DNA of 64,000 bases, taken from contig CAVVOZ010000016.1 in the NCBI GenBank assembly GCA_963749975.1, positions 8,496 to 72,495 on the forward strand, read 5' to 3'. This DNA is from an uncultured Candidatus Rokubacteria bacterium. Lineage in GTDB: Bacteria > Methylomirabilota > Methylomirabilia > Rokubacteriales > DASRDR01. Position 1 is the first letter of the stretch. Each line of letters starts with the position of its first letter. The notes under the pieces are model-generated. The model worked only from the letters and a program-made list of their open reading frames with translations. It searched no databases and was not told the DNA's origin. The translations under genes were made by a program, and so were the position numbers. This document shows positions 26,749-59,935 of the stretch, piece after piece.

Positions 26749-26967
26749 TGCGGTTCCGACCCACGCCTGGGCTGGGTCCAGTGCAAGTCCAAATCGATTC
26801 GGTGGCTGTGTACGCCGCGGGTGGCGCCGGGTGCTGCCTCCCGCGCCGAGGCCGGGGGTCCCTACACCGGGCGAGGGTGGCCGAGGCGCGGGAGGCAAGC
26901 CCGGCGACGGGCCCCGCGGCTCGCTCAAGGCAGTTGGATCGGCGCTAGCGGCCGGCGCGAGCGCCAC

Positions 26968-35620: not shown

Positions 35621-37141
35621 TCACGGCTTTGACGGAGCCAGCCGCTGCACGTCGGGGACGTCCTGGCCCGCGGCGTGGGCGAGCTGCTCGAGGCCGAAGA
35701 CGTAGGCGTAGAGCGCCTGGAGGTAGTCGGCTCGGGTCCGGGCATACTGCACGAAGGCGTCCGCCAGGTCGTCCGGATCCCCGACCCCCAGGTCCACGTT
35801 CGAGGAGCTCGCGACGAGCCACTGCTTGGCGTTGTCGTGCGCCTCCGACAGGACCCTGGTGTTCCGCTCGGCCTCGACCACCGTGGTGTACGCGTCGCGA
35901 ACCTGGAGCGGGATTCCGTCGAGGGCGTGGTCCCGCAGGGCTTCGAGCTTCTGGACCTCCGCCTCGGCTTCCTTGATCTTGCCGGCGCGGATCCCGAAGT
36001 CGAGGTTGTACTTGAAGCCGATGACCGGCCCCACCGCGGTGTGGTAGAGGGGGTCGATGACGTAGGGGTTCTCGAGCCGGTCTCGGTTGGTCGCGTACGC
36101 GAGATCGCCCAGGAGGCCGACGAAGAAGAGCGGATAGCCCTGCTTGCGCTCGACCTCGACCAGTCTCCGGCGCGCCTCGATGCCCTCCCGGAGCTGGGAG
36201 AACTCCGGCCGCCCGGCGAGCGCGTTCTGAACGTACAGGTCCAGCGCCGGGATGGGCTTCATGTCCGCCGGCAGGACCTCATCCGTCGGGTCGACGGCCA
36301 CCCCCTTGGGCTGGCCCGTCCACGTTCCCAGGGCCTGGGTGGCCAGGTCTATCGTCTTGTCCGTGAGGTTGATGTACCGCTCGAGCTCACCGCGCTTGGA
36401 GCGAAACCGGTAGAGGTCGATGTCGGTCGCGAATCCGCCCTCCACCAGCCGCTCGGTCCGCGCGATCGCCTGGTCGACCTGATCGCGCACCTCGACCAGG
36501 AACGCGCGGATCGCCTTGGCCGTCACGGCCCCCCAGTACGCCTGCTTCACGCGGAGCGCGACCTCGGTGCTCTTGACGTCGACGCCAGCCTGCGCGGCCC
36601 GGACGCCGTGGTCGGCGGCCAGGCGCGCGTTCTCGACAAGGCCCCACGTGAAGATGGGCTGGATGATGCTGACCGTGCCCCGCACGAACGCGCCCGTGAT
36701 GTCCGGGGAGTACTGGTCGTCAGGGGAGGCGACCTGGTTCCCGCGGGCCCGGGGTGACGGGCCGAGCACGGTCTGGACCTCGATCTGCGGGCGGCCGATC
36801 CCGACGGCCTGGAGCTGCTTGCCGCGGAAGCCCTCGAGCTCTGCGATCGCCTGGCGGGTCTCGGGGCTCCGCCCGAGCGCCGCCCGGAGGCTCGCCTCCA
36901 GCGTCAGCCGGACGGCCGGCGGTCCCAGGACGGACGCCGACTGGGCGGGAGTAGCCGGAGCCGAAGGCGTCGACGTTCCCTGCGTGGCCGGTGGGGGCGT
37001 GGTGCCCTGAGCCCCGACCGATCCCGGGGTGAGCGTTGCGCCCAGCATCAAGACCAGCGCCACGGGCAGCACCCGGACGGGCACGCGCGTGCCGGGCCGC
37101 GCTGCCGGGGCGCCGGAAGTGAGGGGACGGTGCCAGCGCAT
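35621..37141 (-). CDS. TolC-family outer-membrane protein
   Basis: Signal peptide plus a Thr/Pro-rich linker, then two OEP-type repeats (LTLEASLRAALGRSPE...; ...ALAGRPEFSQLREGIEARR...YLQALYAYVFGLEQL). Confidence 0.75.
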   Translation of the reverse strand: MRWHRPLTSGAPAARPGTRVPVRVLPVALVLMLGATLTPGSVGAQGTTPPPATQGTSTPSAPATPAQSASVLGPPAVRLTLEASLRAALGRSPETRQAIAELEGFRGKQLQAVGIGRPQIEVQTVLGPSPRARGNQVASPDDQYSPDITGAFVRGTVSIIQPIFTWGLVENARLAADHGVRAAQAGVDVKSTEVALRVKQAYWGAVTAKAIRAFLVEVRDQVDQAIARTERLVEGGFATDIDLYRFRSKRGELERYINLTDKTIDLATQALGTWTGQPKGVAVDPTDEVLPADMKPIPALDLYVQNALAGRPEFSQLREGIEARRRLVEVERKQGYPLFFVGLLGDLAYATNRDRLENPYVIDPLYHTAVGPVIGFKYNLDFGIRAGKIKEAEAEVQKLEALRDHALDGIPLQVRDAYTTVVEAERNTRVLSEAHDNAKQWLVASSSNVDLGVGDPDDLADAFVQYARTRADYLQALYAYVFGLEQLAHAAGQDVPDVQRLAPSKP

Positions 37142-37145
37142 GAGT

Positions 37146-37583
37146 CTACACCTTGCCGAATACGTACTTCGAGATCAACTCCTCGATGTCGACCGGCGCT
37201 TCGACCTCGGTGAGGCGCCCACCGGCCGGCACGAGCTTGTCCGAGCCTCCCGGGCTGATCTGGATGAACTTCTCGCCGATGAGACCCTTCGTCTTGATCG
37301 AGACGATTGCGTCGGTCTGGAGCTTCACGGCGTCGTCGATCCGGAGGGCGACCCGTGCCTGGTACTCCTTGAGCCCGATCGACTGCACCCGGCCGACCGA
37401 GACGCCGGCGATCTCCACGGCCGCTCCGGACTTGAGCCCGCCCACGGTCGGAAAGTCCGCGTAGACGACGTAGCCCTGACGGCCCAGGACGTCGACCTTG
37501 CCCAGATTCATGGACAGGTACGCCAGCGCGAGGATTCCCGCGACCATGAACAGCCCGACTCCGAGCTCCACTCGTCGCCCCAT
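37146..37583 (-). CDS. mlaD: MlaD (MCE-domain) protein
   Basis: N-terminal TM helix, then the MCE domain ...YADFPTVGGLKSGAAVEIAGVSVGRVQSI...VSIKTKGLIGEKFIQISPG. Confidence 0.85.
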   Translation of the reverse strand: MGRRVELGVGLFMVAGILALAYLSMNLGKVDVLGRQGYVVYADFPTVGGLKSGAAVEIAGVSVGRVQSIGLKEYQARVALRIDDAVKLQTDAIVSIKTKGLIGEKFIQISPGGSDKLVPAGGRLTEVEAPVDIEELISKYVFGKV

Positions 37584-37636
37584 GACGGCCTCCGTGCCTT
37601 CTTTGCGCGCTTCCGCTTTGACCAGCTAGATGGCAG

Positions 37637-38398
37637 CTAGACGGCCTGCTCCTCGACCTCGCCGTGGATGAATCGACGCACCGCCGGGTCGCTGGAGCCC
37701 TGGATCTCCTCCGGCGTGCCCACCATGTGGATCCGCCCTTCGTGGAGCACCGCGACACGGTGGGCGATCTGGAAGATCTCCGGGATCTCGTGACTGACCA
37801 TGACGGCCGTGAAGCCGAACTTTCGATGAAGCCCGACGACCAGATGGTGGATCGAGTTGACGAGGATGGGGTCGAGCCCGGTCGTCGGCTCGTCGAGGAA
37901 CACCACCTGGGGCTCGGTGACCAGCGCCCGAGCGATGGCAACGCGCTTCCGCATGCCTCCGGAGATCTCGGCCGGGTACTTGTGGCCCATCTCCCCGAGG
38001 CCGACCTGGGCCAGGGCTTCCTGGGCCCGTGGCAGGAGATCGGACTGGGGAAGCCGGCGGCGCTCCCGGATCGGGAACAGGATGTTCTCGAGCACGGTGA
38101 GCGAGTCGAAGAGGGCGCCTCCCTGGAACACGACCCCGAAGCGCTCCCGGATCCGGTCGAGGGCCTGCCCGCGGAGGCTCGCCACGTCCTGGCCGTCGAT
38201 GATCACGCGCCCGGCATCCGGCCGGACCAGCCCGAGGAGGTGCCGGAGGAGCACGGACTTGCCGCCCCCGGACCGCCCGATGACGACCATCAGCTCGGCC
38301 GGCGCGATCTCGAGGTCGATCCCGCGGAGAACCTCCTGGCGTCCGAAGCGCTTGCGGAGCCCCTCGACCCGGATCGCGGGGGCCGGCGCTCCCGTCAC
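37637..38398 (-). CDS. mlaF: MlaF-type ABC transporter ATP-binding protein
   Basis: Walker A GRSGGGKS, signature ISGGMRKRVAIARAL, Walker B VVFLDEPTTGLD. The GTG start overlaps the mlaE stop as GTGA. Confidence 0.9.
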   Translation of the reverse strand: MTGAPAPAIRVEGLRKRFGRQEVLRGIDLEIAPAELMVVIGRSGGGKSVLLRHLLGLVRPDAGRVIIDGQDVASLRGQALDRIRERFGVVFQGGALFDSLTVLENILFPIRERRRLPQSDLLPRAQEALAQVGLGEMGHKYPAEISGGMRKRVAIARALVTEPQVVFLDEPTTGLDPILVNSIHHLVVGLHRKFGFTAVMVSHEIPEIFQIAHRVAVLHEGRIHMVGTPEEIQGSSDPAVRRFIHGEVEEQAV

Positions 38399-39180
38399 GG
38401 CATCACCGAGCCCAGGAGGTAGTCGAGCACGAGGATGAGGACCGACGCGAGCACGACCGCCTCGGTCGTGGCGCGCCCCACGCCCTCGGCGCCGTGGCCG
38501 ACGTTGAAGCCCTTGTAGCAGGCGACCCACGTGATGACGAGCCCGAACACGAGCGCCTTCCAGAAGCCGACCCAGATGTCCTCGGTGTCCAGGAAGGCCT
38601 GGATCTGCCCGAAGTAGGTTCCGGAGGACATCCCGAAGAGCTTCACCGTCACGAGATAGCCGCCGTAGATGCCCACGACGTCGAATACCCAGGCGAGGAG
38701 GGGAAGGGCGACGAGCCCCGCCACCAGCGTCGGCACGACCAGGTACCGCATCGGGTTGAGCGCCATCACGGTCAGCGCGTCGATCTGCTCGGTGATGCGC
38801 ATGACGCCGATCTCGGCGGCGAGGGCCGATCCCGCGCGTCCGGTCACCATCAGCGCGGCGAGCACCGGGCCGAGCTCACGCACGAGCGCGATCGCCACCA
38901 GCGGGCCCACGAAGGCCTCCGAGCCGACGCGCTGCAGCATCAGCATGCCCTGGAGCCCGAGGACCATTCCGGTGAACGCCCCGGTCAGAAGGATCACGGA
39001 CATCGATCGAAAGCCCACGAACCAGACTCGCTGGAGCGCCTGGCGGGCCTTGAACGGCGGGACGACGGCCCAGCGCAGCGCCTCGCCCAGGAAGACGCCG
39101 AAGCGCCCGAGGGCCGAGAGGGTATCGAGGCCGAACCGCCCGAGACCCTGGATGGAGTCGAGGACGAGGGAACCGGGCAT
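38395..39180 (-). CDS. mlaE: MlaE-type ABC transporter permease
   Basis: ...FVGFRSMSVILLTGAFTGMVLGLQ...ELGPVLAALMVTGRAGSALAAEIGVMRITEQIDAL... is the typical MlaE/Ttg2B core. It starts 41 nt after the shc stop. Confidence 0.9.
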   Translation of the reverse strand: MPGSLVLDSIQGLGRFGLDTLSALGRFGVFLGEALRWAVVPPFKARQALQRVWFVGFRSMSVILLTGAFTGMVLGLQGMLMLQRVGSEAFVGPLVAIALVRELGPVLAALMVTGRAGSALAAEIGVMRITEQIDALTVMALNPMRYLVVPTLVAGLVALPLLAWVFDVVGIYGGYLVTVKLFGMSSGTYFGQIQAFLDTEDIWVGFWKALVFGLVITWVACYKGFNVGHGAEGVGRATTEAVVLASVLILVLDYLLGSVMP

Positions 39181-39221
39181 TCGGGGGTGAACGGGTCTGT
39201 GGCTTGGGCTCCCGCCGGGCT

Positions 39222-41111
39222 CTACCGCGTGAGCCGGCGCCACGCTCCGAGCGCCCACAGGGGGAAGTAGTGGGCGTAGAGGTGGTACTGCAGGTAGAAG
39301 ACCCGAGGAAAGCCGGTTCCGTTCCAGAGCTGGTCGTCCCAGCCGCCATCGGCTCGCTGGCCCCGCAGGAGGAACTCGATGCCACGCTCGACCACCGGGG
39401 TGGCCGCCTGGCCCGCGGCCATCAGGCCGAGCAGGGCCCACGCCGTCTGGCTCGGTCCCGATGCCCCGCGTCCCTTGAGGTGGGCGTCGGCGTAGGAATC
39501 GCAGGTCTCGCCCCAGCCGCCATCCGGATTCTGGCGAGCCTCGAGCCATCGGATCGCACGCCCGACCATGGGATCGTCGGCGCGGAGCCCGATCGCCTCG
39601 AGTCCCCGGAGGACCGACCACGTCCCGTAGAGGTAGTTCACGCCCCAGCGCCCGTGCCACGCGCCCTCGGGCGTCTGGGTTCGGCGGAGGAACGCGAGGC
39701 CCCGCTGGATCGCCGGGTCGTCACGCGGGACCCCCAGCCGCCCGAAGCACTCGATGCAGCGCGCGGTGAGGTCTTCCGTGGCCGGGTCGAGGAGCGCCCC
39801 GTGATCGGCGAACGGGATGTTGTTGAAGAGCAGCCGCGTCTGATCCGTGTCGAACGACGCCCAGCCCCCGTCCTTGCCCTGCATGCCCCGGAGCCACCGC
39901 ACGGCGCGGTCGATGGCAAGGCGCCGCCGGCCGTCGTCCGGATGGTCGATCTGGGCCAGCCCCATGGCGACCACCGCGGTGTCGTCGAGATCCGGGTAGA
40001 AGGGGTTGTCGAACTGGAAGGCCCAGCCGCCGGGCGCGAGCCCCGGACGCTTGACCTGCCAGTCTCCCGTCTCGAGCACCTGACGGTCCAGGAGCCAGTC
40101 CGCGGCGCGAATGACGGCCGGGTGCGAGCTCGGGAGCCCCGACGCCAGAAGGGCGTTGACCGCGAGCGCGGTGTCCCAGACGGGGGACACGCACGGCTGG
40201 ACGTGGAAACGACGCGGCTCCTCGACGCCGAGCGCCTCGATCTCCTTGATCTGCCCCGCGATCAGTCCGTGATCATCCGGGTAGCCCAGGAGCCGCATCG
40301 CCAGGATCCCGTTCACCATGGCGGGATAGATGCCACCCAGGCCGCCCGGGACGGTCATCCGAGGAACCAGCCAGTCGTGGGCGGCACGGATCGCCCGGGC
40401 GCGCCAGGGGCGAGGTCCGAAGGCCTCCCACGTCTTGAGGAAGCCGTCGACGCCGATGAAGATGTTCTTCCACGACACGAGCCCGCGGCGCGCATACGCC
40501 GGGTCGTCGAGGTGGAGGTGATGCGCCCACAGCTCGTCGATGCCCCAGCCGCGCGGAACGGGGTGCACCGGCCGGCGGTCCATGACGATCAGGAGGGGGA
40601 TGAGGACCGTCCTCGACCAGTAGGAGATCTCCCAGATGTTGAAGTAGGACCACCGGGGCAGCAGCATGATCTCGACCGGCATCGCCGGCACGCCGCCCCA
40701 GGGGTACTGGCCGAACAGGGCCAGGGTGATCTTGGTGAACACGTTGGCCTGGGTCGGCCCGCCCCGCTCCAGGATCCACTCCCGGGCGCGAGCCATGGCG
40801 GGATCGGCCGGGGAGACCTGGGCCATCTTCATGGCGAAGTACGCCTTGATGGTCGCCGAGAGGTCGCCGGCCCCGGCCTGGTAGAGGTTCCACGAGCCGT
40901 CCGTGCCCTGCCGGTCCCTGAGGTACGCGACCGCCTTCTGCTCGAGGTCCCGATCCACGGTCCCGAGGAGATGGCGGAGGAGGACGTACTCGGACGTGAT
41001 GGTGGAGTCGGCCTCCAGCTCCCCGACCCAGTCCCCGGCCGGGGACTGGAGCCGCAGGAGATGGTCCTGCGAGCGCCGGAGCGCCGCGTCGACTCGGCTC
41101 GTATCTACCAT
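39222..41111 (-). CDS. shc: Squalene-hopene cyclase
   Basis: QW repeats (e.g. RDRQGTDGSWN, LLDRQVLETGDW, LRGMQGKDGGW, ARQNPDGGWG, GQRADGGW) and the catalytic DxDDTA motif (YPDLDDTAVV). Confidence 0.95.
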   Translation of the reverse strand: MVDTSRVDAALRRSQDHLLRLQSPAGDWVGELEADSTITSEYVLLRHLLGTVDRDLEQKAVAYLRDRQGTDGSWNLYQAGAGDLSATIKAYFAMKMAQVSPADPAMARAREWILERGGPTQANVFTKITLALFGQYPWGGVPAMPVEIMLLPRWSYFNIWEISYWSRTVLIPLLIVMDRRPVHPVPRGWGIDELWAHHLHLDDPAYARRGLVSWKNIFIGVDGFLKTWEAFGPRPWRARAIRAAHDWLVPRMTVPGGLGGIYPAMVNGILAMRLLGYPDDHGLIAGQIKEIEALGVEEPRRFHVQPCVSPVWDTALAVNALLASGLPSSHPAVIRAADWLLDRQVLETGDWQVKRPGLAPGGWAFQFDNPFYPDLDDTAVVAMGLAQIDHPDDGRRRLAIDRAVRWLRGMQGKDGGWASFDTDQTRLLFNNIPFADHGALLDPATEDLTARCIECFGRLGVPRDDPAIQRGLAFLRRTQTPEGAWHGRWGVNYLYGTWSVLRGLEAIGLRADDPMVGRAIRWLEARQNPDGGWGETCDSYADAHLKGRGASGPSQTAWALLGLMAAGQAATPVVERGIEFLLRGQRADGGWDDQLWNGTGFPRVFYLQYHLYAHYFPLWALGAWRRLTR

Positions 41112-41156: not shown

Positions 41157-42014
41157 ATGGGTGGCTCGGGACCGATGGGCGGCGGCGACCAGCTCTTCAT
41201 CTTCGCAGGGCTCGGGGCAGCGCTCGGGCGCGCGTGGGGCAGCGTCCTCCTGCGCCCGTACGTGTTCGGGTTCCTCGCCGTGTACCTCACCGCTGCGGCG
41301 GCGGTGTGGGGCTGGCGGCGCGCGGCGGCGTTCACCGTCTGGGCCGGGGGCCTGGCGTTCGCCGCCGAGTGGAGCTCGACCCGCACCGGGATCCCGTTCG
41401 GGCTCTACCACTACACCGGGGCGACCGTGGGGCGGGAGCTCTACCTCTCGAACGTCCCCTTCTTCGACTCCGTGTCCTTCACGTTTCTCGCGTACGCGAG
41501 TCTCGGGCTGGCCGGGCAGCTCCTCGGCGCCGGGGAAGAGGCGGCCCAGGCCCGGACCGGCGCGCGCCTTCGCCTGGCTGGCCTGGCGGGACTCCTCATG
41601 ATGTGGCTCGACATCGTGATCGATCCGCTGGCGGTGCGGGGCGACCGGTGGTTCCTCGGCCGGATCTTCTACTACCCGGAGCCCGGCTGGTACTTCGGGG
41701 TGCCGGTCGCGAACTTCGTCGGCTGGGTGCTCGTCGGCGCGGCGATCGCGTGGGGCTGGACGATCATCGGCCCTCGCGTCGGCGGCGCGCGGCCCGCCTG
41801 GGGGATGCGCTGGCCGGAGCACGGACGTCAGGCCGTGGCGCTCTACTATCTCGTGCTGGCCTTCAACCTGGCGATCACGGCGGCGGTGGCCGAGCCCGCG
41901 CTTCTCGGCGTCGGGGTTCTCCTCCACGTGCCGCTGGCAGCCGTTGTAGTATGCTCTCTACGATCGCGGGACCAGGCGGGCCGGATACCGGCGCGCGCTG
42001 GCGAGCCCGCATGA
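41157..42014 (+). CDS. Integral membrane protein of the 'carotenoid biosynthesis protein' (DUF422) family
   Basis: Multi-helix membrane protein with ...AEWSSTRTGIPFGLYHYT...SNVPFFDSVSFTFLAY...DPLAVRGDRWFLG...YFGVPVANFVGW.... It is divergent from shc. Confidence 0.5.
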   Translation: MGGSGPMGGGDQLFIFAGLGAALGRAWGSVLLRPYVFGFLAVYLTAAAAVWGWRRAAAFTVWAGGLAFAAEWSSTRTGIPFGLYHYTGATVGRELYLSNVPFFDSVSFTFLAYASLGLAGQLLGAGEEAAQARTGARLRLAGLAGLLMMWLDIVIDPLAVRGDRWFLGRIFYYPEPGWYFGVPVANFVGWVLVGAAIAWGWTIIGPRVGGARPAWGMRWPEHGRQAVALYYLVLAFNLAITAAVAEPALLGVGVLLHVPLAAVVVCSLRSRDQAGRIPARAGEPA

Positions 42015-42033: not shown

Positions 42034-43056
42034 ATGAGCGTACCCATCTCTCAGATGTGGACCGTCGCGAGCTACGTGCTCACGCAGCGGTTTCGTGGGC
42101 GCAAGCAGTACCCGCTCGTCCTCATGCTCGAGCCGCTGTTCCGCTGCAACCTCGCCTGTGCGGGCTGCGGCAAGATCCAGTATCCGGGCCAGATCCTCCG
42201 GAAGAACCTCAGCGTCGAGCAGTGTCTCAAGGCCGTCGACGAGTGCGGCGCCCCCATCGTGTCCATCCCGGGCGGCGAGCCTCTCATGTACCCGGAGATC
42301 GGGCGGCTCGTGACGGAGCTGGTCGCGCGGAAGAAGTACATCTATCTCTGCACGAACGCCATCCTGCTCAAGGAGAAGCTCGACGCCGGCGTCTTCACGC
42401 CGTCGAAGTACCTCTCCTTCAGCATCCACATGGATGGGCTCCGGGAGGAGCACGACGAGGCCGTCTGCAAGGACGGCGTCTTCGACCAGGCCGTCGAGGG
42501 GATCCGGGAGGCGCTCCGCCGGGGATATCGCGTGACGACGAACACCACCCTGTTCGACGGCGCCAATCCCGAGCGGGTGCGGCAGTTCTTCGACGCGATG
42601 ATGGACCTCGGCGTGGAGGGGATGATGGTGTCCCCCGGCTACAGCTACTCGAAGGCGCCCGATCAGGAGCACTTCCTGCGCAAGCAGCGGGCCAACGACC
42701 TCTTCCGACGCATCCTGTCGAGCCCGAAGCGGCGGTGGCGGTTCAACCAGTCTCCGCTGTTCCTCCAGTTCCTCATGGGGAAGCGGGACTACGAGTGCAC
42801 GCCCTGGGGGAATCCGACCTTCAACGTCTTCGGCTGGCAGCGCCCGTGCTACCTCCTCCAGGAGGGCTACGCGCCGAGCTTCGAGGATCTGCTCCGGGGC
42901 ACGCGGTGGGAGCGCTACGGGAAGCGGAGCGGCAACGAGAAGTGCCGCGACTGCATGGTCCACTGCGGGTTCGAGGCGACGGCCGTCCAGGAGACCTTCT
43001 CCAGCTGGCGCGGATTCCGGGACACGGTGGTGGCCACCGTGACCGGACGTGCGTGA
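42034..43056 (+). CDS. hpnH: Adenosyl-hopene transferase HpnH (radical SAM)
   Basis: LEPLFRCNLACAGCGKIQYP (CxxxCxxC) ...GGEPLMYPEI...LCTNAILL...WGNPTFNVFGWQRPCYLL...CRDCMVHCGFE. Confidence 0.9.
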   Translation: MSVPISQMWTVASYVLTQRFRGRKQYPLVLMLEPLFRCNLACAGCGKIQYPGQILRKNLSVEQCLKAVDECGAPIVSIPGGEPLMYPEIGRLVTELVARKKYIYLCTNAILLKEKLDAGVFTPSKYLSFSIHMDGLREEHDEAVCKDGVFDQAVEGIREALRRGYRVTTNTTLFDGANPERVRQFFDAMMDLGVEGMMVSPGYSYSKAPDQEHFLRKQRANDLFRRILSSPKRRWRFNQSPLFLQFLMGKRDYECTPWGNPTFNVFGWQRPCYLLQEGYAPSFEDLLRGTRWERYGKRSGNEKCRDCMVHCGFEATAVQETFSSWRGFRDTVVATVTGRA

Positions 43057-43404
43057 TGGAGGTCGAGAAGACCCTCGAGGGGTGGGCGCCCGAGCCGGAT
43101 GCCGAGATGTCTCTCGCCCACATCGTCGAGCTCGCCTTCGACTACCGGGGCAACACCACGGTCGTGAAGCGGGACGGTACGGAGCATCCACGGCTACGTG
43201 TTCAACCGGGACGCGGACGCTCCGGTGCCGTACCTCGAGATGTTCGATGCCGAGGGCGGGGGACCCTACCGCGTTCCGTACGCGGAGGTGCGCACGATCC
43301 ACTTCACCGGAAAGGACACCGCGGCCGGGAAGTCCTACGCCGCATGGCTTGCCCGGAAGCAGGCGGAGAAGGCCGGACGGGCGGCGGGCCCACCGCCACC
43401 GTGA
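43056..43404 (+). CDS. Small conserved hypothetical protein in the hpn cluster; apparent +1 frame break near 43183-43190
   Basis: MEVEKTLEGWAPEPDAEMSLAHIVELAFDYRGNTTVVKRDGTE is in the first frame. It continues as IHGYVFNRDADAPVPYLEMFDAEGGGPYRVPYAEVRTIHFTGKD in the frame of ORF 43198..43404. The ATG overlaps the hpnH stop. Confidence 0.45.
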
Positions 43405-44128
43405 CGCAGGGGTCGAGCTCACGCGCGAGGGTCGCTTCCTCGTCGTCGCCGGCCTCGCCATGGAGGCCCGCGGACTGCTCCGGCGCTTGCCGCCGGCCAC
43501 CCGGCGGGCGCTGACCGTCCGGATCGTGGGCCCTCGCGCGACCCTCCTCGACCGTCTCGAGATCCCCCCGGCCTCGCGGGAGCCCGTGGGGCTGCTCGTG
43601 ACCGGGCTCGCGGGTGGCTGCGGGCCAGATCTCCGGCCGGGTGACGTCATCGTCGGCGACCCCGTGGCGACCCCAGGTGCGGAGTCCTGCAGTGACGCCG
43701 GGGATCCCGGCCTCCGACACCGGGCCACACGCGCCCTCGATGCCGCCCGGCTTCGCTACCGGGTCGGACGGCTCCTCACGGTGGACGACGTCGTGACGAG
43801 CCCGGCGGCGAAGGCGGAGTGGTGGGCGACGCAGCGCGTGCTGGCCGTCGACATGGAGAGCGCGCACGTCCTCGCCTGGGCCCGGCGCGCCGGGCTTCCC
43901 GCGCTGGCGGTCCGGGCCGTCGCGGACGGCCCCGAGGACGACGTACCGCGAGAGCTGCTCGGAGTGGTGGGGGCGGATGGCCGCACGCGCGCCCGCGCCG
44001 TGGCGCGCCTCCTCGGGCGTCCGGCTCTGGTCGGCGCGGCCTGGCGCCTCGGGCGTCGGTCGCACCAGGCGCTCGAGAGCCTTGCCCGGTTCATCCGGGC
44101 GTTCGTGGACACACCGGGCGAGCCCTGA
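43401..44128 (+). CDS. hpnG: Hopanoid-associated phosphorylase HpnG (PNP/UDP family); start unresolved
   Basis: FLVVAGLAMEARGL...LLVTGLAGGCGPDLRPGDVIV...AVDMESAHVLAWARRAGLPALAVRAVADG. The only start-like codon near the conserved N-terminus is GTG 43401 (a GTGA overlap), but it is one base out of frame with the rest of the gene. Confidence 0.7.
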
Positions 44129-45312
44129 GGCCTCTCGCCGCGCTCCTGGTCGGCTGCCTGCTCGCGCTGCCGCGCCCGGCGGCGGCGGACACCTCGTATT
44201 CCTTCTTTCCCTTGCCCGCGTTCGACACCGATCCGAACGAGGGGGAGACCTACGGCGTCCTGCCGGTCTGGATGTTCAAGGACGAGGAGGGGCGTATCCG
44301 GACCATCGTGGCCCCATCCATAACCTGGAACGAGATCCGCGGGGTGACGGGGACGTTCCGGTACTTCCTCTACGCGAGCGCCTTCGAGCGGCTGGAGCTC
44401 ATCGCCTCCTACTCGGAGAAGATCGACCGCGAGCTCAAGGTCCAGTACAAGAATCTCGACGTGTTCGGCGGCCGATTCCACACCGACTTCCAGTTTCTGC
44501 ACGAGCGCGTGTCCTCGATCCGCTTCTTCGGTATCGGCCCCTCATCGCAGAAGGAGGACGAGTCCAACATGACGCTGGAGACGACGGGGGGCTACGCCAT
44601 CTTTGGCGTCAACGTGACTCCGACCATGCGGCTGTCCCTCGGCGAGACCCTCCAGCGGTTCGAGGTCGCCCGAGGGGGTGTGCCGGGCCTACCGTTCACC
44701 GGCGACCTCTTCCCCGACCTCCCCGGGATCCAGGGCGCCACGATCCACGCCCAGCGGGTTGCCTTCATACACGACAACCGCGACTCGCTGACCACGCCGA
44801 CGCAGGGACTCTACGTCAGCGTGTTTGCCGAGGCCTCCACCGAGCTCCTCGGGAGCGACGCCGACTACATCAAGGCCGGCGCCGAAGGCAGGTACCTGAA
44901 GCCCTTCCTCGACCGCCGGGTCGTGCTGGTCCTGCGGGGACTCTTCGAGGGCATCTCGGGTGAGTCGAACACCCCCTTCCAGGTGCTGCCCACGCTGGGC
45001 GGGGTCGACACGCTGCGCGGCTTTGGCGAGAATCGCTTCTACGGGGACGCCCGGTTGCTCTTCAATGCCGAGGTGCGCGGCAGTGTGTTCCGCGGCCGCA
45101 TCTTCGGCGTCGACGCGGAGTTGCAGGTCGCGCCCTTCGTCGACGTCGGCAAGGTGTTCAACTCGCTCGAGCAGTTCCTCGACACCCCCTTCGAGATCAC
45201 TCCCGGTGTCGGGTTTCGCGGGCTGGCTCCGCCGAGCGTCGTCGGCCACATCGAGTTCGCGTTCAGCCGGGAGGGGCCGGCGATCTACGTCGGCCTCGAC
45301 TACCCCTTCTGA
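44125..45312 (+). CDS. Omp85/BamA-TamA-family outer-membrane beta-barrel protein (surface antigen domain only); CTG start candidate
   Basis: Signal peptide (L/M)RPLAALLVGCLLALPRPAAA. C-terminal barrel with ...LPTLGGVDTLRGFGENRFYGDA...VDVGKVF...PGVGFRG...EFAFSREGPAIYVGLDYPF. CTG 44125 overlaps the hpnG stop. Confidence 0.7.
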   Translation: MRPLAALLVGCLLALPRPAAADTSYSFFPLPAFDTDPNEGETYGVLPVWMFKDEEGRIRTIVAPSITWNEIRGVTGTFRYFLYASAFERLELIASYSEKIDRELKVQYKNLDVFGGRFHTDFQFLHERVSSIRFFGIGPSSQKEDESNMTLETTGGYAIFGVNVTPTMRLSLGETLQRFEVARGGVPGLPFTGDLFPDLPGIQGATIHAQRVAFIHDNRDSLTTPTQGLYVSVFAEASTELLGSDADYIKAGAEGRYLKPFLDRRVVLVLRGLFEGISGESNTPFQVLPTLGGVDTLRGFGENRFYGDARLLFNAEVRGSVFRGRIFGVDAELQVAPFVDVGKVFNSLEQFLDTPFEITPGVGFRGLAPPSVVGHIEFAFSREGPAIYVGLDYPF

Positions 45313-45515: not shown

Positions 45516-46523
45516 ATGAGAGCGCTCGTCACCGGCGGGACCGGCTTCGTCGGCAGCCACGTCGTGCGGGCCCTGGTCGAGGACGGCGTCACCGTGCGCG
45601 TCCTGGCCCGTCCGGGGAGCGACCGGCGCGCCCTGGCCGACCTTCCGGTCGAGATCGTGACGGGCGACCTCGCCGAGCCGCGCTCGCTGGAGGCGCCGCT
45701 CGCGGGCGTGGAGGTGCTCTACCACGTCGCGGCCGACTACCGCCTCTGGGCGCGCGACCCCGCCGTGCTCTACCGCGTCAACGTCGGCGGCACGCGGGCG
45801 CTCCTCCTCGCCGCGGCCGCGGCCGGCGTCGCTCGCGTGGTCTACACGTCGAGCGTCGGCACCCTCGGCTTGCCGCCGGAGGGCAGGTCCGGCACGGAGG
45901 AGACGCCGGTCCGGCTCGAGGACATGGTGGGGGACTACAAGCGCTCGAAGTTCCTCGCGGAGCGCGAGGCGGAGGCGGCCGCCGCTCGCGGATTGCCCGT
46001 CGTCATCGTCAACCCCTCGGCGCCCGTCGGTCCGTGGGACTGGAAGCCCACGCCGACGGGGCGGATGCTCGTGGACTACCTGAAGGGTCGGATGCTCGCC
46101 TACCTGGAAACCGGGCTGAACGTCGTGCACGTTCGCGACGTCGCGCGAGGGCACCTCCTGGCCGCCGCGCGCGGCCGAGTCGGCGAGCGGTACATCCTGG
46201 GGCATGCGGAGGGGAACCTGGGGCTCCGCGCCATCTTCGAGCGGCTCGCCCCCTACACCGGGGTGCGGGCGCCCCGGGTGCGCCTGCCGCACCGGGCCGC
46301 GCTGGCGCTCGGTGCCGGCGCCGAGCTCGTGGCGCGCCTGACGGGGACCGAGCCGGTCGTCGCGCGGACTGCCGTGCGGATGGCGGCCAAGCGGATGTTC
46401 TTCGACCCGTCCAGGGCGATCCGGGAGCTCGGGCTGCCCCAGACGCCCGTGGACCAGGCGCTCCGCGATGCGGTGGACTGGTTCTGGGCGAACGGCTACG
46501 CTCCGCGCCGGCGCCGTGTATAA
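45516..46523 (+). CDS. hpnA: Hopanoid-associated NAD-dependent sugar epimerase/reductase HpnA (extended SDR)
   Basis: MRALVTGGTGFVGSHVVRAL...YHVAADYRLW...VYTSSVGT...YKRSKFLAE (YxxxK). Confidence 0.8.
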   Translation: MRALVTGGTGFVGSHVVRALVEDGVTVRVLARPGSDRRALADLPVEIVTGDLAEPRSLEAPLAGVEVLYHVAADYRLWARDPAVLYRVNVGGTRALLLAAAAAGVARVVYTSSVGTLGLPPEGRSGTEETPVRLEDMVGDYKRSKFLAEREAEAAAARGLPVVIVNPSAPVGPWDWKPTPTGRMLVDYLKGRMLAYLETGLNVVHVRDVARGHLLAAARGRVGERYILGHAEGNLGLRAIFERLAPYTGVRAPRVRLPHRAALALGAGAELVARLTGTEPVVARTAVRMAAKRMFFDPSRAIRELGLPQTPVDQALRDAVDWFWANGYAPRRRRV

Positions 46524-46553: not shown

Positions 46554-47417
46554 GTGTCACATCACGTCATGAACGCGGCTGACCTCTCCGCCATCCTCAC
46601 CCGTCGCAGCGGGTCGAATTTCTACTACTCGTTCCTGTTCCTGCCGAAGCGGAAGCGGCACGCCATCTACGCGCTGTACGCCTTCTGTCGAACGGTGGAT
46701 GACGCCGTGGATCAGGGGGCGGCGACACCGAGCGAGCAGCGCCGCATCCTGGCGGACTGGCGGCTCGAGCTGGGCCGCGCGTACGACGGCCGCCCGACGC
46801 AGCCGATCGCTCAGCATCTCGCCGAGGTGGTCCGGGCCTTTCCCGTCCAGCGCCAGCACCTCGAGGCGATCCTCGACGGCGTCGAGATGGACATCGACAA
46901 GCGACGCTACGCCTCGTTCGAGGAGCTGTACGAGTACTGCTACCGGGTGGCGGGAGCGGTCGGTCTGGCCTGCATCGAGGTCTTCGGCTACACGGACCCC
47001 CGGGCCCGGGACTACGCGGTCAACCTGGGCATCGCGCTCCAGCTGACGAACATCATGCGCGACCTCCGCACGGACGCCGAGCGGGGCCGCATCTATCTGC
47101 CGCTCGACGAGATCCGCCGGTTCGGGTACTCGGAGGACGAGCTCATCCACGGGCGGCACACTCCGGCGTTCGTCGGGCTGATGCGCTTCCAGGCCGATCG
47201 CGCGCACGCGTACTACCGTGCCGCCAAGGCGGCCCTGCCGCCGGCCGACCGGCGCCGCCTGATCGCGGCGCAGATCATGGGCGGCATCTACCGCGCGCTC
47301 CTGCGAGAGATCGAGGCGCGCCAGTTCCGCGTCTTCGACGGTCGCATCCGGGTTTCCACTCCGAAGAAGATCGCCCTCGCGCTCGGCGCTTACCTGCACG
47401 GCCAGCTCGCCCCATGA
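46554..47417 (+). CDS. hpnD: Squalene/phytoene synthase family enzyme (HpnD-like presqualene diphosphate synthase)
   Basis: SNFYYSFLFLPKRKRHAIYALYAFCRTVDDAVD (first Asp-rich motif) ...YCYRVAGAVG...QLTNIMRDLRTDAERGRIYLP. Alternative start at ATG 46569. Confidence 0.75.
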   Translation: MSHHVMNAADLSAILTRRSGSNFYYSFLFLPKRKRHAIYALYAFCRTVDDAVDQGAATPSEQRRILADWRLELGRAYDGRPTQPIAQHLAEVVRAFPVQRQHLEAILDGVEMDIDKRRYASFEELYEYCYRVAGAVGLACIEVFGYTDPRARDYAVNLGIALQLTNIMRDLRTDAERGRIYLPLDEIRRFGYSEDELIHGRHTPAFVGLMRFQADRAHAYYRAAKAALPPADRRRLIAAQIMGGIYRALLREIEARQFRVFDGRIRVSTPKKIALALGAYLHGQLAP

Positions 47418-48440
47418 GGGCGGCCGTCCACGCGGGTGCCGGCGAGATCCGGGTCGAGACCCACCCCGCCCCCCGGATCGGGCCCGGCGAGCTCCTGCTG
47501 CGGGTCCTGGGCTGCGGCCTGTGCGGCTCGGACCTGGCCAAGCTCCGCGGGCCGGCGCCGCGGCCGGCCGTCCTCGGGCACGAGGTCGTGGGCGAGGTGG
47601 CCGAGGCGGGCGAGGGCGCCGGGGGTTTTCGTCCGGGCGAGCGAGTCGTCGTGGCCCACCACGTCCCGTGTTCCACCTGCCACTACTGCCGGCGAGGCAG
47701 CGTCTCGATGTGCCGGGCCTTCAAGGCGTCGAACCTCGACCCGGGTGGCTTCGCCGAGTACGTGCGCGTCCCCGCCGAGAACGTGCGCCACGTGACCTTC
47801 CGCGTGCCCGCCGGGATGTCCGACGCCGTCGCCTCGTTCACCGAGCCTCTCGGCTGCTGCGTCCGGGCGATCCGGCGCGCGGCGGTGGAGGGAGGCGACA
47901 CGGTCGTCGTGGCGGGGCTCGGGGCGATGGGCTGCCTCCTCCTCCAGCTCGCGCGCCGGCGCGAGGCGCGCGTCGTGGGACGTGGATCCGCTTCCGGCCC
48001 GCCGGGCGCTCGCGGAGTCGCTGGGTGCGGAGGTCGCCGTGGCGCCCGATGGGGCCGGCAGGGCCATCGCGGGCCTGAGCGAGGGCCGGGGCGCGGACGT
48101 GGTCGTGCTGGCGGCCGCGGCTCCCGCCCTCGTCCGGGCCGCGCTCGGCTGGGTGCGGGACGGCGGGGCGGTTCACCTCTTCGTCGGCGAGGGCGAGGGG
48201 CCGGTGCCGTTCGGCGAGCTCTACAAGCGGGAGCTGACCCTGACCGCGACCTACTCGTCGTCCCCGGCGGACCTGGCCGAGGCCTTCGACCTCATCCGAA
48301 GCGGCGCGATCCGGGTGGACGAGCTCTGCTCGCATCGCGTCCCCCTCGAGCGCCTGGCCGACGCGGTCGGCCTCATGGAGCGCCGCGAGGCGCTCAAGGT
48401 CTTCGTGGAGATGGGTTGCAAGCCGGGGAGTCTCCCGTGA
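47414..48440 (+). CDS. Zn-dependent MDR alcohol/polyol dehydrogenase; apparent +1 frame break near 47975-47983
   Basis: GCGLCGSDL...GHEVVGEV...CSTCHYCRRGSVSMC (structural Zn), GLGAMGCLLLQLA (Rossmann). It continues as VDPLPARRALAESLGAEV...LKVFVEM in the frame of ORF 47982..48440. The ATG overlaps the hpnD stop as ATGA. Confidence 0.8.
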
Positions 48441-48519
48441 TCGGTGCGCGTGTTGCTCCAATGCGGGTCCGCCTCCCTCCTCGGGGTGGGAGGGGGTTCA
48501 GCGGTGGGGGGGGTCCCGA

Positions 48520-49542
48520 ATGAGGGCGCAGGTCTTCTACGGTCCCGGCGACCTCCGGTTCGAGGACGCGCCGGTGCCGGAGCCGGGCCCGGGCGAGGTG
48601 GTGCTCCGGATCGAGGCGGCACTGACCTGCGGCACGGACGTGAAGACGCTTCGGCGGGGCCATCCCGTGATGATCCCGCGGGTGCCCACGGTCTTCGGTC
48701 ACGAGTTTGCGGGGACGGTCGCGGCGATCGGGCCGGGTGTGGGTCATGTGCGGCTCGGAGACCGGGCGGTTGCGGCGAACTCGGCCCCGTGTGGGACGTG
48801 TGCGGCCTGTCGCCGGGGCCGGGCGAACCTCTGCGACGACCTCCTCTTCGTGAACGGCGCCTACGCCGAGTACATCGCCCTCCCTCCGCGCCTGGTCGCC
48901 CGGAACCTGGTGACGGTGTCGCCGGGCGCCGAGGCGGCGCGCATCGCGTTCGCCGAGCCCGTTGCCTGCTGTCTACGGGCCATCGACGCGGCGGAGGTGG
49001 GGGCGGGGGACACCGTGGTGATCCTGGGCCACGGGCCGCTCGGCCTCCTCCTCGGCCTCCTGGCCCGCGCCGGGGGGGCGCGGGTGATTCTCGCGGGCAA
49101 GACGGGACTGCGCCTCGAGCGTGCCCGTGGGCTCGGCTTTGCCGCCTGCGTGGACGTGGCGCGGGTGCCCGACGCGGTCTCGGCCGTGCGCGAGGCGGCC
49201 GGCGGCGACGTGCGCTGCGTGATCGAGGCGACCGGGAGGCCCGAGGCGTGGGAGCAGGCGATGGCCGTCGCCGGCAAGGGCGCCACCGTGGTGTTCTTCG
49301 GCGGCTGCGCTCCCGGCACGAGCGTCCCTCTCGACACGCGACGGGTCCACTACGAGGAGCTGCGGCTCCTGGGCGTGTTCCATCACACTCCCGCGCTGAT
49401 CCGGCGGGCCGTCGCGCTGCTCGCCGACGGCACGCTCGATCCCACGCCGCTGGTCACCCACGAGATGGGGCTCGGCGACGTGCCGCGGGCACTCGACCTG
49501 ATGAGCCGAGGCGAAGCGCTCAAGGTCCTGATCCGCCCGTGA
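48520..49542 (+). CDS. Zn-dependent MDR alcohol/polyol dehydrogenase (paralog)
   Basis: TCGTDVK...GHEFAGTV...CGTCAACRRGRANLC..., ILGHGPLGLL..., ALKVLIRP. Confidence 0.85.
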   Translation: MRAQVFYGPGDLRFEDAPVPEPGPGEVVLRIEAALTCGTDVKTLRRGHPVMIPRVPTVFGHEFAGTVAAIGPGVGHVRLGDRAVAANSAPCGTCAACRRGRANLCDDLLFVNGAYAEYIALPPRLVARNLVTVSPGAEAARIAFAEPVACCLRAIDAAEVGAGDTVVILGHGPLGLLLGLLARAGGARVILAGKTGLRLERARGLGFAACVDVARVPDAVSAVREAAGGDVRCVIEATGRPEAWEQAMAVAGKGATVVFFGGCAPGTSVPLDTRRVHYEELRLLGVFHHTPALIRRAVALLADGTLDPTPLVTHEMGLGDVPRALDLMSRGEALKVLIRP

Positions 49543-49838
49543 CGGCGCCGACCGCTGGGGAGGGTTGCCGCCGGGTCGGGCGATGTCCCGGGTGCCGGGA
49601 GCATGTTCGGGCACCGCTTCCAGTTCGTCTCCAACCCAACGATCTGCAGCTTCACCCCCGGCATCAACGCGAGCGCGGCAGTGTCTCAGTTGGCCCTCGG
49701 CGGAATCACTGTTCGCTCCGAGCCCGGTTTGGTGCGCGAGAGGTCGCCGGACCTTGGGAGGAATTCCAGGAGCAACTCTAGCCGGTGAACGCGGCCAGCG
49801 TCTGCCGAGCGACAACTCAAAGCGCGCGGCGGCGTTGC

Positions 49839-49868
49839 TTGCGTCGGTCGGGCCGCGGCCTCTATACT
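49839..49868 (+). promoter_or_regulatory. Sigma70-like promoter giving a (near-)leaderless ispH transcript
   Basis: TTGCGT (49839-49844), 18 nt, TATACT (49863-49868), then 8 nt to ATG 49877. No Shine-Dalgarno sequence fits in between. Confidence 0.4.
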
Positions 49869-49876
49869 GAGGGTCC

Positions 49877-50891
49877 ATGCGAACAGCGGGCCGCGAGCAG
49901 CCCTCGATTCCCGCTCCCGCGCCGCTCGCCGAGATCGTTCTGGCGGGGCCGCGGGGCTTCTGTGCCGGCGTCGAGCGGGCCATCGAGATCGTCGAGCAGG
50001 CCCTCGAGGTCGTCGGCGTGCCCGATCTACGTCCGGCGCGAGATCGTCCACAACCGCCACGTGGTCGAGGCCCTCCGGGAAAAGGGCGCCGTCTTCGTGG
50101 ACGAGCTCGACGAGGTGCCGGAGGGCGCGACGGTGATCTTCAGCGCCCACGGGGTATCGCCGGCCGTGCGGGAGTCCGCGACGGCGCGGCGCCTCCGCGT
50201 GATCGACGCGACGTGCCCCCTGGTCACGAAGGTCCACCTGGAGGCCATCCGGTACGCGAAGGAAGGGCGCACGATCGTGCTCGTCGGCCACGCGGACCAC
50301 GACGAGGTGATCGGGACCCTCGGCGAGGCGCCCCGGCGCATCGTGGTCATCGACTCGGTCGAGGAGGCGGAGCAGCTGACCGTCGAGGACCCCGCGAAGG
50401 TCGCCTACCTGACGCAGACCACGCTGTCGGTGGACGACACGAGGGCGGTCATCGAGGTGCTCCGCCGCCGGTTCCCGGCCATTCTCGGGCCGGCGCGTGA
50501 CGACATCTGCTACGCGACGCAGAACCGCCAGGCGGCCGTCAAGCAGCTCGCGAACGACGTGGACCTGGTGCTGGTGCTGGGCGCGGCGAACAGCTCGAAC
50601 GCGAACCGGCTCCGAGAGGTCGCCGAGGCGCTGGGCACGCGCGCGCGGCTCATCAACGACGTCCGCGACATCCGGCCGGAGTGGCTCGATGGGTGTAACC
50701 GCATCGGCGTGACGGCCGGCGCGTCGACGCCGGAGTTCCTCGTGCGCGAGGTGGTGGACTACCTCGGGGCCCGCGGCGCACCGGCGGTGCGAGAGTTCCG
50801 CGTGGTGGAGGAGGATGTCCGCTTCGGGTTGCCCCACGAGCTCCTCGAGATCGCGCGCCAGAAGCAGGCGGCGTCGGCCGCCGCGTCGTAG
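49877..50891 (+). CDS. ispH: 4-hydroxy-3-methylbut-2-enyl diphosphate reductase; apparent +1 frame break near 50015-50023
   Basis: GPRGFCAGVERAIEIVEQAL is in the frame of ORF 49877. It continues as PIYVRREIVHNRHVV...IFSAHGVSP...IDATCPLVTKVH...GHADHDEV...QTTLS...ICYATQNRQ...SSNANRL...TAGASTPE in the frame of ORF 49785..50891. Confidence 0.9.

Positions 50892-56908: not shown

Positions 56909-59935
<3,027 letters not shown>

Follow-up and report, generated by a model that had tools for sequence, protein, structure and literature searches.

The window, meaning the whole 64,000-nt stretch of DNA analysed here, comes from an uncultured soil Candidatus Rokubacteria bacterium (assembly GCA_963749975.1, contig CAVVOZ010000016.1, positions 8,496–72,495 of the forward strand) and carries a hopanoid operon. 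The squalene-hopene cyclase gene shc is located on the minus strand at 39225–41100, divergent from the hpnH operon and with an approximate upstream limit; its TIGR01507 match (801.8 bits) covers residues 276–899 of a 901-aa open frame, and the frame plot points to minus-strand coding. On the plus strand lie hpnH, encoding adenosylhopane synthase (42034–43056; TIGR03470, 532.3 bits), and hpnG (43049–44128, the open reading frame as listed), in which the PF01048 phosphorylase domain starts at about residue 150 and which scores 114.7 bits with TIGR03468, under the cut-off of 187.1. Further downstream, after a gene for an Omp85 protein, follow hpnA, encoding the hopanoid-associated SDR 'sugar epimerase' (45516–46523; TIGR03466, 466.3 bits, cut-off 367.65), and hpnD, encoding presqualene diphosphate synthase (46554–47417; PF00494, 273.9 bits; TIGR03465, 322.8 bits, cut-off 278.6). 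The ispH (lytB) gene is found at 49785–50891 on the same strand (TIGR00216; PF02401, 286.8 bits), and since its domain begins at residue 78, the true start is probably located later within the listed open reading frame.

Two genes, designated MDR1 and MDR2, occupy the space between hpnD and ispH on the plus strand, and the sequence-only reading was right in describing them as paralogous zinc-dependent MDR dehydrogenases. MDR1 consists of a first part in frame 0 (47414–47980), which encodes the GroES-like catalytic domain and the start of the Rossmann domain (PF08240 ADH_N, 91.8 bits, E 3.9e-26), and a second part in the +1 frame (47982–48440), which encodes the Rossmann remainder and the C-terminus (PF00107 ADH_zinc_N, 47.6 bits, E 2.1e-12). 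MDR2 (48520–49542) is intact, encodes 340 aa and matches both families as well (PF08240, 86.9 bits; PF00107, 71.9 bits). The two proteins share 37% identity when the intact MDR1 of the relative L001 is compared with MDR2 of the window. The ATG of MDR1 overlaps the TGA stop of hpnD in the tetranucleotide ATGA at 47414–47417, as had been noticed from the sequence alone. A search for terminator-like sites between 40800 and 54300 gave none, where shuffled sequence would lead one to expect 2.5; this is weak evidence.

The frame break in MDR1

The +1 frame break reported for the first paralog is real in the assembly. Beyond approximately residue 189, frame 0 yields an Arg/Gly/Pro-rich nonsense sequence, and the real continuation is in the +1 frame, the two parts being separated by one extra base at 47981. 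In the DNA alignment this base is missing in all five relatives, and it is also missing from the Logan contigs of all three public runs covering the position (X1, X2 and X5, none of which is shown to come from the source sample); run X3 has no coverage of 47981. The X1 contig displays only three other letter differences in 430. Altogether 20 public-run rows share part of the stretch, each of them fewer than half of the sampled words. The MDR1 ortholog of L001 is intact with 335 aa in a single frame, and the gene is in a single frame in 70 of 72 loci. Because the extra base is missing in the five relatives and the three covering runs, it is probably an assembly error, and the organism thus probably has both enzymes. 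Two other breaks were seen in the window, namely a DAO/GCV_T gene split across two frames (26749–29401) and a PdxT fragment (3410–3751), both of which fit an indel-prone assembly.

Active site, cofactor and conservation of the pair

The catalytic Cys, His and Glu and the four structural-zinc cysteines are visible in the MDR1 translation. The catalytic zinc ligands (Cys, His-Glu, Glu), the four-Cys structural site and the GxGxxG motif, at positions described for the Zn-MDR family and placed by alignment with sorbitol (SDH) and L-threonine (TDH) dehydrogenases, are invariant in all 83 MDR2 and all 81 MDR1 sequences scored. Both proteins belong to the polyol/threonine-dehydrogenase branch of zinc dehydrogenases and are of the active type. 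At the end of strand β2, MDR1 has Asp in 68 of 81 sequences, and the same position in MDR2 is characterized by Gly (78/83) and Lys (76/83); the MDR1 Asp and, in MDR2, Gly193 of the NADP-type signature Gly193-Lys194 align with the Asp/Glu of NAD-dependent SDH and TDH. The predicted cofactors are NAD(H) for MDR1 and NADP(H) for MDR2. IolM, Tdh and sorbitol dehydrogenases match best among the families, with scores far under the cut-off in every case. Assignment of MDR2 as an L-threonine 3-dehydrogenase was rejected (156 bits against a cut-off of 458.35 for TIGR00692; 153.2 against 380 for NF003808), the MDR1 halves scoring 112.4 and 25.1 bits with L-threonine 3-dehydrogenase profiles, and so was its assignment as the scyllo-inosose 3-dehydrogenase IolM (NF041097; 160.3 bits against 450). 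Relatives carry the JGI label 'L-iditol 2-dehydrogenase'.

All loci matched by an MDR2 search of genome contigs belong to the phylum of the window, and the synteny set comprises 80 species-level loci. Three loci labelled Binatia, Deferrimicrobiaceae and Acidoferrum do not provide a centre in another phylum, the HpnH places of two of them coinciding with those of the Rokubacteriales genomes G123 and G106. The gene arrangement hpnA-hpnD-MDR1-MDR2-ispH has been conserved in Rokubacteriales and in two sister orders. Among loci whose contigs leave room, MDR1 immediately precedes MDR2 in 71 of 74, hpnD precedes the pair in 67 of 69, and ispH follows it in 57 of 60. MDR1 and MDR2 are translated together with hpnD; a 4-nt overlap is present between hpnD and MDR1 in 47 of 72 loci and between MDR1 and MDR2 in 41 of 79. 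The lowest protein identities in the loci are ~58% for MDR2 and ~45% for the C-terminal part of MDR1. The Omp85 gene insertion is restricted to the closest relatives, the family f7 has ispH inverted with the pair still among hpn genes, and in the family f9 the search next to the pair turned up no hpnD.

Co-occurrence with hpnH/hpnG was a check named in the sequence-only reading, and within the phylum the pair was compared with hpnH. In the two genomes of the family f5, both 100% complete, neither HpnH nor the tandem pair was found. In the HpnH-positive genomes G011, G125 and G141 (94%, 95% and 85% complete) the queries used retrieved no tandem, only single MDR matches of 33–41% identity. In G008 and G183, which belong to the same class and possess HpnH, the pair lies far from both hpnH and hpnD, in a housekeeping-gene environment where it follows a DUF971/GBBH-like_N gene, the hpn genes being dispersed in both genomes anyway. 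Apparent losses of MDR2 in G065 and G084 are assembly gaps, since the hpnH contigs stop before the expected MDR place.

Elsewhere, an unrelated soil metagenome contig, L106, exhibits the order ispH-shc-hpnH-hpnA-hpnG-MDR(371 aa)-MDR(349 aa)-hpnC, with an HpnH only 45% identical to that of the window. Its two MDR proteins are 36% (MDR1) and 41% (MDR2) identical to the pair; in the tree the upstream one is positioned within the MDR1-type clade (14 rows, SH-aLRT 98) and the downstream one in the MDR2-type half, not as sister to the rokubacterial MDR2. On the contig L109 (GC 38%) genes of both types stand in tandem, and no hpn gene occurs up to 8 kb away. MDR2-type single genes (L100, L105 and L110) have unrelated housekeeping genes as neighbours and thus offer no functional clue. 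Relatives at 46–47% identity include a protein from a Bathyarchaeota MAG, and a Ktedonobacterales MAG is the other named source among the nearest outgroups.

Possible roles of the pair

The sequence-only reading had put the pair forward for the reduction of ribosylhopane to bacteriohopanetetrol (BHT), believing that no gene had been assigned to that step. This belief agrees with the available portions of PMC12583986 (Nov 2025) and PMC13459092 (Aug 2026), which give no enzyme for the conversion, the latter using the words 'predicted to be nonenzymatically transformed'. Our literature search found no MDR assigned to any hopanoid step. The cell-free reaction from ribosylhopane to BHT was reportedly found to be NADPH-dependent by Bodlenner et al. 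in 2015. The pair is a plausible candidate for this last BHT-making step: the zinc ligands, the hpn linkage, both conserved and present on L106, and the NADP-type signature of MDR2 speak for it, whereas nothing in these features is specific to ribosylhopane and the tightest coupling is to hpnD, not to hpnG.

The best explanation as a whole, which we advance tentatively, is that MDR1 and MDR2 together make up a redox module of two enzymes within the hopanoid operon, acting on the side chain. Both enzymes would act on the polyhydroxylated C5 side chain built on hopene by HpnH and HpnG. The most likely specific reaction would be the reduction by MDR2 of the open-chain ribosylhopane aldehyde with NADPH to BHT, and MDR1 would use NAD to oxidise either a hydroxyl group of the side chain or the ribosyl hemiacetal; MDR1 and MDR2 may assemble into a hetero-oligomer. 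The side-chain role is suggested by the operon coupling, by the recurrence in a second lineage and by the fact that the step is still without an assigned enzyme. That the pair stays among hpn genes despite changing neighbours (the Omp85 gene, f7 and f9) counts for a hopanoid role, and the situation in f5 counts for a side-chain role. On the other hand, the side-chain role is weakened by the tightest coupling being to hpnD, with hpnG separated from the pair by the Omp85 gene and hpnA. The proposed aldehyde reduction by MDR2 is weakened because polyol-type MDRs usually oxidise secondary alcohols and do not reduce the C1 of aldoses. A specific or universal role is weakened by the pair being outside the hpn clusters in two related lineages (G008 and G183), by the hpnH-bearing genomes in which no tandem was found (G011, G125 and G141), by the MDR2-type relatives in an archaeal MAG and by the tandem without hpn genes on L109. 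It is also weakened by published gene clusters, since the available part of the 2025 survey describes alphaproteobacterial hpn clusters as having no obvious candidate genes nearby (PMC12583986), and Chloracidobacterium thermophilum, which has genes for bacteriohopanepolyols (BHPs), lacks one of the two acidobacterial counterparts, ug2, according to the accessible part of PMC5462960.

Alternatively, and no less tentatively, the pair may be a general sugar-alcohol or amino-alcohol dehydrogenase module without a hopanoid substrate, an ancient gene pair taken up by the hpn cluster and since carried with it. The same ordered pair is seen outside hpn clusters in G008, G183 and L109, in the first two following the DUF971/GBBH-like_N gene; MDR2-type singles stand among housekeeping genes, relatives occur in the Ktedonobacterales and Bathyarchaeota MAGs, the best families (IolM, Tdh and sorbitol dehydrogenases) are all matched far below their cut-offs, and the JGI label of the relatives is 'L-iditol 2-dehydrogenase'. 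However, the frequent 4-nt overlaps with hpnD, the survival of the place inside the hpn cluster through several neighbour rearrangements and the recurrence on the distant contig L106 and in published acidobacterial clusters argue against this reading, as does the window itself, where no sugar transporter, kinase or regulator adjoins the pair.

The coupling of MDR1 to hpnD instead of hpnG would also suit a service to the squalene/isoprenoid branch, with the pair handling an HpnD/HpnC intermediate or by-product, e.g. an allylic alcohol or aldehyde of the farnesyl, presqualene or hydroxysqualene series. The same is suggested by the flanking genes, hpnD and ispH in the window and, immediately after the pair, hpnC in L106, as well as by the failure to find HpnE in any of 201 genomes of the phylum (8 candidates per genome scored). 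This role is nevertheless unlikely. In L106 and in the published Acidobacteria the pair coexists with HpnC (and HpnD/HpnE), so that it is not their replacement; G011, G125 and G141 have SHC and/or HpnH without HpnE and without the tandem, so that squalene formation in these genomes does not depend on the pair. Moreover, a squalene-synthase-like gene is present elsewhere in the organism's own genome (L082/L083; PF00494, 170 bits), the f9 pair has no hpnD found beside it, and no HpnC, HpnD or HpnE step is known to require a zinc alcohol dehydrogenase (Pan et al. 2015, as cited in PMC5462960). Complementarity between HpnE and the in-cluster pair was also considered and dropped, the count of 0/201 leaving no pattern to read. 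It is very unlikely that the frame break is real and MDR1 a pseudogene in this strain, with MDR2 working alone, for although the extra base is present in the assembly, does not simply lengthen a long homopolymer run and might conceivably be a private mutation, none of the four compared runs being shown as the source sample, it is missing in all five relatives and all three covering runs including the nearly identical X1, the strong codon-position GC signal persists in the +1 frame past the break, the window has at least two further frame breaks, many genes are split in relatives whose assemblies consist of few and very long contigs (L006 and L015), and MDR1 is in one frame in nearly all other loci.

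The side-chain redox module may also be framed in a fuller form, in which MDR2 would be the NADPH-dependent ribosylhopane reductase of Rokubacteria and Acidobacteria, and MDR1 its obligate NAD-linked partner, possibly hetero-oligomeric, that oxidises either a hydroxyl of the side chain or the ribosyl hemiacetal; together the two would thereby determine both redox state and stereochemistry in the C35 side chain (BHT, lactone, BHT isomers). In all these particulars the proposal is distinctly unlikely; if true, a hetero-oligomeric MDR would itself be unusual. Bacteriohopanepolyols rank among the major lipids of bacterial membranes and are in wide use as geological biomarkers, and a conserved, co-translated NAD-type/NADP-type pair in the hopanoid operons of two abundant soil lineages offers concrete genes to test. 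Should the pair belong to the squalene branch or be unrelated, a recurrent false lead would be removed.

Comparison with known systems

Sorbitol and L-threonine dehydrogenases (PDB 1pl6, 3qe3, 2dfv and 2dq4; E 1e-36 to 1e-39) have in common with MDR1 and MDR2 the fold and domain order, the catalytic Cys-His-Glu(-Glu) zinc site and the four-Cys structural zinc site. Unlike them, MDR2 is without the NAD-specifying acidic residue, and the genetic context is sugar or threonine catabolism in their case but hopanoid genes here. The best PDB match of both proteins is the 'putative zinc-binding dehydrogenase' 4ej6/4ejm (MDR2 5e-44, MDR1 3.8e-42), which has Thr-Arg at the position of the MDR2 Gly-Lys and, having no assigned function, gives no substrate clue. 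HpnA is the other suggestion published for the conversion of ribosylhopane to BHT (in the available part of PMC5462960). Like the MDR proteins, it is an NAD(P)-dependent oxidoreductase whose gene belongs to this operon, but it has the SDR and not the MDR fold. According to the accessible parts of PMC5462960 and PMC12583986, Burkholderia cenocepacia can do without HpnA in making BHT, and some BHT producers lack the protein.

The closest parallel is provided by ug1 and ug2, two Zn-ADH genes in acidobacterial hopanoid clusters, the function of which is given as 'not established' in the available text of Sinninghe Damsté et al. 2017 (PMC5462960). As here, they form a pair of ~340–370-aa Zn-ADHs beside hpnA/hpnG and squalene-synthase-like genes, and the pair of the window likewise stands within a hopanoid cluster, directly after hpnA-hpnD. 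Likeness to the ug1/ug2 proteins was judged through L106 alone as a stand-in of inferred taxon; the gene order and sizes of L106 match those described in PMC5462960, and its genes fall in the MDR1-type and MDR2-type groups. The gene order differs, being hpnA-hpnD-MDR1-MDR2-ispH here and hpnA-hpnG-ug1 / ug2-hpnC-hpnD-hpnE in Acidobacteria. In the part of that paper available, two Zn-ADH genes in hpn clusters are already in print since 2017; the window pair belongs to a different phylum, Methylomirabilota (Rokubacteria) as against Acidobacteria.

The hpn operon and its two dehydrogenase genes

A gene map of the window (70–77% G+C), whose contig belongs to a genome of 5.28 Mb in 37 contigs with a completeness rated 91%, was drawn from family scans. 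On the forward strand, hpnH (42034–43056), hpnG (within 43049–44128), an Omp85-family gene (within 43819–45312), hpnA (45516–46523) and hpnD (46554–47417) are followed by MDR1 (47414–48440), MDR2 (48520–49542) and ispH (49785–50891), and then by genes for a DAO-type flavoprotein, pyruvate kinase and a LAB_N protein, in that order. The sequence-only reading had placed two paralogous Zn-dependent MDR dehydrogenases at these coordinates, with an ATGA at 47414–47417 joining hpnD to MDR1; the scans bear out the coordinates, the overlap and the description of the two proteins, which are 37% identical, and the presence of the pair in the hpn operon is confirmed.

On the reverse strand, shc (39225 to about 41100) is followed by mlaE, mlaF and mlaD and by a gene for an outer-membrane efflux protein (OEP; 35624–37174), all continuing the shc strand within 35624–41100. 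The genes mlaF and mlaE adjoin shc in most related loci and lie within the hpn locus in family f7; by analogy with the Mla-like trafficking proposed in a passage of PMC12324291, the mla and OEP genes could possibly form a hopanoid export system. Between shc and hpnH, in a position kept across the class, lies a gene for a CruF-like "carotenoid biosynthesis" membrane protein (41157–42014, forward strand; PF04240, 94 bits), the substrate of which may be a hopanoid or squalene double bond (hydration) and not a carotenoid. The Omp85-family insertion between hpnG and hpnA is restricted to the closest relatives of the window (f1 loci) and is not found in the rest of the order. A single stop-free frame at 56912–59935 (reverse strand) encodes a membrane domain of the LPG_synthase_TM type, to whose fold family HpnL belongs, and then a complete NAD-dependent DNA ligase, representing either two same-frame genes or an artefactual fusion.

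As assembled, MDR1 is a 369-aa open reading frame with a second half of Arg/Gly/Pro-rich nonsense. Its true continuation lies in the +1 frame at 47982–48440, where the codon-position G+C signal shifts likewise, and the +1 break first noticed from the sequence is thus present in the assembly. In a DNA alignment with five relatives, the window alone has an extra base at 47981; this base is also missing from the Logan contigs of all three public runs covering this position (X1, X2 and X5, of four compared), the X1 contig differing from the window in just three other letters over 430. MDR1 is single-frame in 70 of 72 related loci, and the ortholog at locus L001 is intact (335 aa). There are at least two more frame breaks in the window: a DAO/FAO_M/GCV_T dehydrogenase (26749–29401, forward) runs over two overlapping frames that divide at GCV_T profile position 171, and a PdxT (SNO) fragment (3410–3751, forward) lacks everything before profile position 91. 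The break in MDR1 is very probably an assembly error.

Conservation and age of the pair

Synteny was compared across 80 species-level loci, all from MAGs, representing the closest public relatives of MDR2; 72 are labelled Rokubacteria, Rokuibacteriota, Methylomirabilota or Methylomirabilia, five "uncultured bacterium" and three otherwise. MDR1 lies immediately 5' of MDR2 in 71 of the 74 loci with room (the exceptions being L033, L034 and L078), hpnD is upstream of the pair in 67 of 69, and ispH is downstream on the same strand in 57 of 60. Overlaps of 4 nt join hpnD to MDR1 (47 of 72 loci) and MDR1 to MDR2 (41 of 79).

In 201 searched genomes of the phylum, HpnH scored over the cut-off in 190, and full-length MDR2 orthologs (at least 53% identity) were present in families f1–f4, i.e. 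the order of the window, and in f7 and f9, the best matches in f5, f6, f8 and f10–f12 having 33–42% identity. These tallies, as well as that for HpnE, include five genomes flagged unpublished (G029, G047, G058, G101 and G152), on which alone no claim is based. In G065 and G084, complete-looking genomes of the window's order without an MDR2 ortholog, the hpnH contig stops before the MDR position. The cluster order in f7 is hpnH-hpnG-hpnA-hpnD-MDR1-MDR2 with ispH inverted, and in f9 the pair follows hpnA, no hpnD being detected beside it; the pair therefore remains among hpn genes as its neighbours vary.

In genomes G008 (f6) and G183 (f10), an MDR1-type and then an MDR2-type gene are found distant from hpnH and hpnD, immediately preceded by a small GBBH-like_N (DUF971) gene (L092, 11690–12049, reverse; L093, 8453–8830, forward), the array in G008 being pheT-rny-ymdB-folD-x-DUF971-MDR-MDR. 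In the window's own genome, a GBBH-like_N (DUF971) gene is found on the MDR2 contig, some 61 kb downstream of MDR2. When the MDR2-like protein of G008 is compared with that genome, its best match is the window MDR2 (1.3e-65 at 41% identity), and the second-best full-length match is 31% identical. An IQ-TREE quick tree was calculated for 89 sequences, omitting from 150 representatives those with <300 or >400 residues plus about half of the remainder. The upstream genes of the tandems (Rokubacteria, G008, G183, L109_a and L106_a) all lie in one 14-row clade (SH-aLRT 98), and the downstream genes all fall within the MDR2-type half (SH-aLRT 96), the MDR2-like proteins of G008 and G183 being on a long branch without resolved placement. 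In locus L109 (38% G+C), no hpn gene lies within 8 kb of a tandem of both types, the neighbours of which encode TolC, GmhB, an M48 peptidase, an RTX-repeat protein and TopA; MDR2-type singles from JGI metagenome loci are located among unrelated genes. The pair predates its position in the hpn cluster.

That the pair is a hitchhiker unrelated to hopanoids is a possible explanation. Because the hopanoid genes of G008 and G183 are dispersed, the placement of the pair there argues only weakly against its having a hopanoid role; the retention of the pair among hpn genes in f7 and f9 speaks against the hitchhiker reading.

Predicted cofactors and candidate reactions

The catalytic and structural zinc ligands and the GxGxxG motif are all kept in 81 of 81 MDR1 and 83 of 83 MDR2 sequences. 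The residue at the end of strand β2 in Rossmann folds is an established guide to NAD versus NADP preference. At this place MDR1 has Asp in 68 and Gly in 12 of the 81 sequences, and MDR2 has Gly-Lys (Gly in 78 and Lys in 76 of 83); when aligned with HMMER, these residues lie opposite the Asp in sorbitol dehydrogenases and the Glu in an archaeal threonine dehydrogenase. MDR1 is therefore predicted from sequence to use NAD(H) and MDR2 to use NADP(H). The MDR2-like proteins of G008 and G183 have Asp at this position. Among curated families the best matches were IolM and Tdh, both well under the cut-offs, and the best solved relative, 4ej6, is without assigned function.

A service of the pair in the squalene/isoprenoid branch is rather unlikely. 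The own genome has HpnD, neither HpnC nor HpnE being over the cut-off, and an SQS-like gene (347 aa) on two near-identical stretches (L082/L083, contigs C28 and C2), these two copies pointing to duplicated strains or to contamination of the bin; with HpnD and the SQS-like gene, it resembles the "hpnD plus fdfT" genomes in entries of the PMC5462960 supplement. HpnE was found in none of the 201 genomes (eight candidates scored per genome) and the MDR tandem was not found in G011, G125 and G141, so the pair is dispensable for squalene in these three.

A redox role of the pair on the hopanoid side chain is a possible explanation too, about as likely as the hitchhiker reading. The most likely specific reaction, doubtful as it is, would be that of MDR2 as an NADPH-dependent ribosylhopane reductase yielding bacteriohopanetetrol (BHT), as put forward for both genes in the sequence-only reading. 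The cell-free reduction of Bodlenner et al. in 2015 was reportedly NADPH-dependent.

In passages of a November 2025 paper, the conversion of ribosylhopane to BHT is without an assigned enzyme and the surroundings of alphaproteobacterial hpn clusters contain no obvious new candidate genes (PMC12583986); a passage of an August 2026 review describes it as "predicted to be nonenzymatically transformed" (PMC13459092). HpnA was proposed for this step in a section of PMC5462960 that also mentions counter-evidence. The genes hpnS and hpnT are named in a 2025 preprint that deals with microsynteny around shc, the searched passages of which mention neither zinc nor GroES-like domains (PMC12324291). The literature search found no paper assigning an MDR to any hopanoid step.

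Comparison with the acidobacterial ug1/ug2 genes

The nearest relative of MDR2 outside the phylum, P0128, whose cluster includes a Ktedonobacterales MAG protein, was used to scan JGI metagenomes, which gave 12 loci. One of these, L106 (63% G+C), represents a second lineage that carries the pair within an hpn cluster; its order is ispH-shc-hpnH-hpnA-hpnG-MDR(371 aa)-MDR(349 aa)-hpnC, where the contig ends, and its HpnH is 45% identical to that of the window, within-class identities being at least 68%. According to the cluster descriptions in PMC5462960, acidobacterial cluster C contains hpnA-hpnG-ug1 and cluster A ug2-hpnC-hpnD-hpnE, where ug1 is a "Zn-dependent alcohol dehydrogenase, ca. 370 AA" and ug2 a "Zn-binding alcohol dehydrogenase, ca. 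350 AA", the function of both being given as "Not established". The arrangement in L106 is that published there for Acidobacteria, and L106 is presumably acidobacterial. As far as these descriptions go, the pair in the window appears to be a Rokubacteria member of the ug1/ug2 kind, which is already in print and still uncharacterised (PMC5462960).
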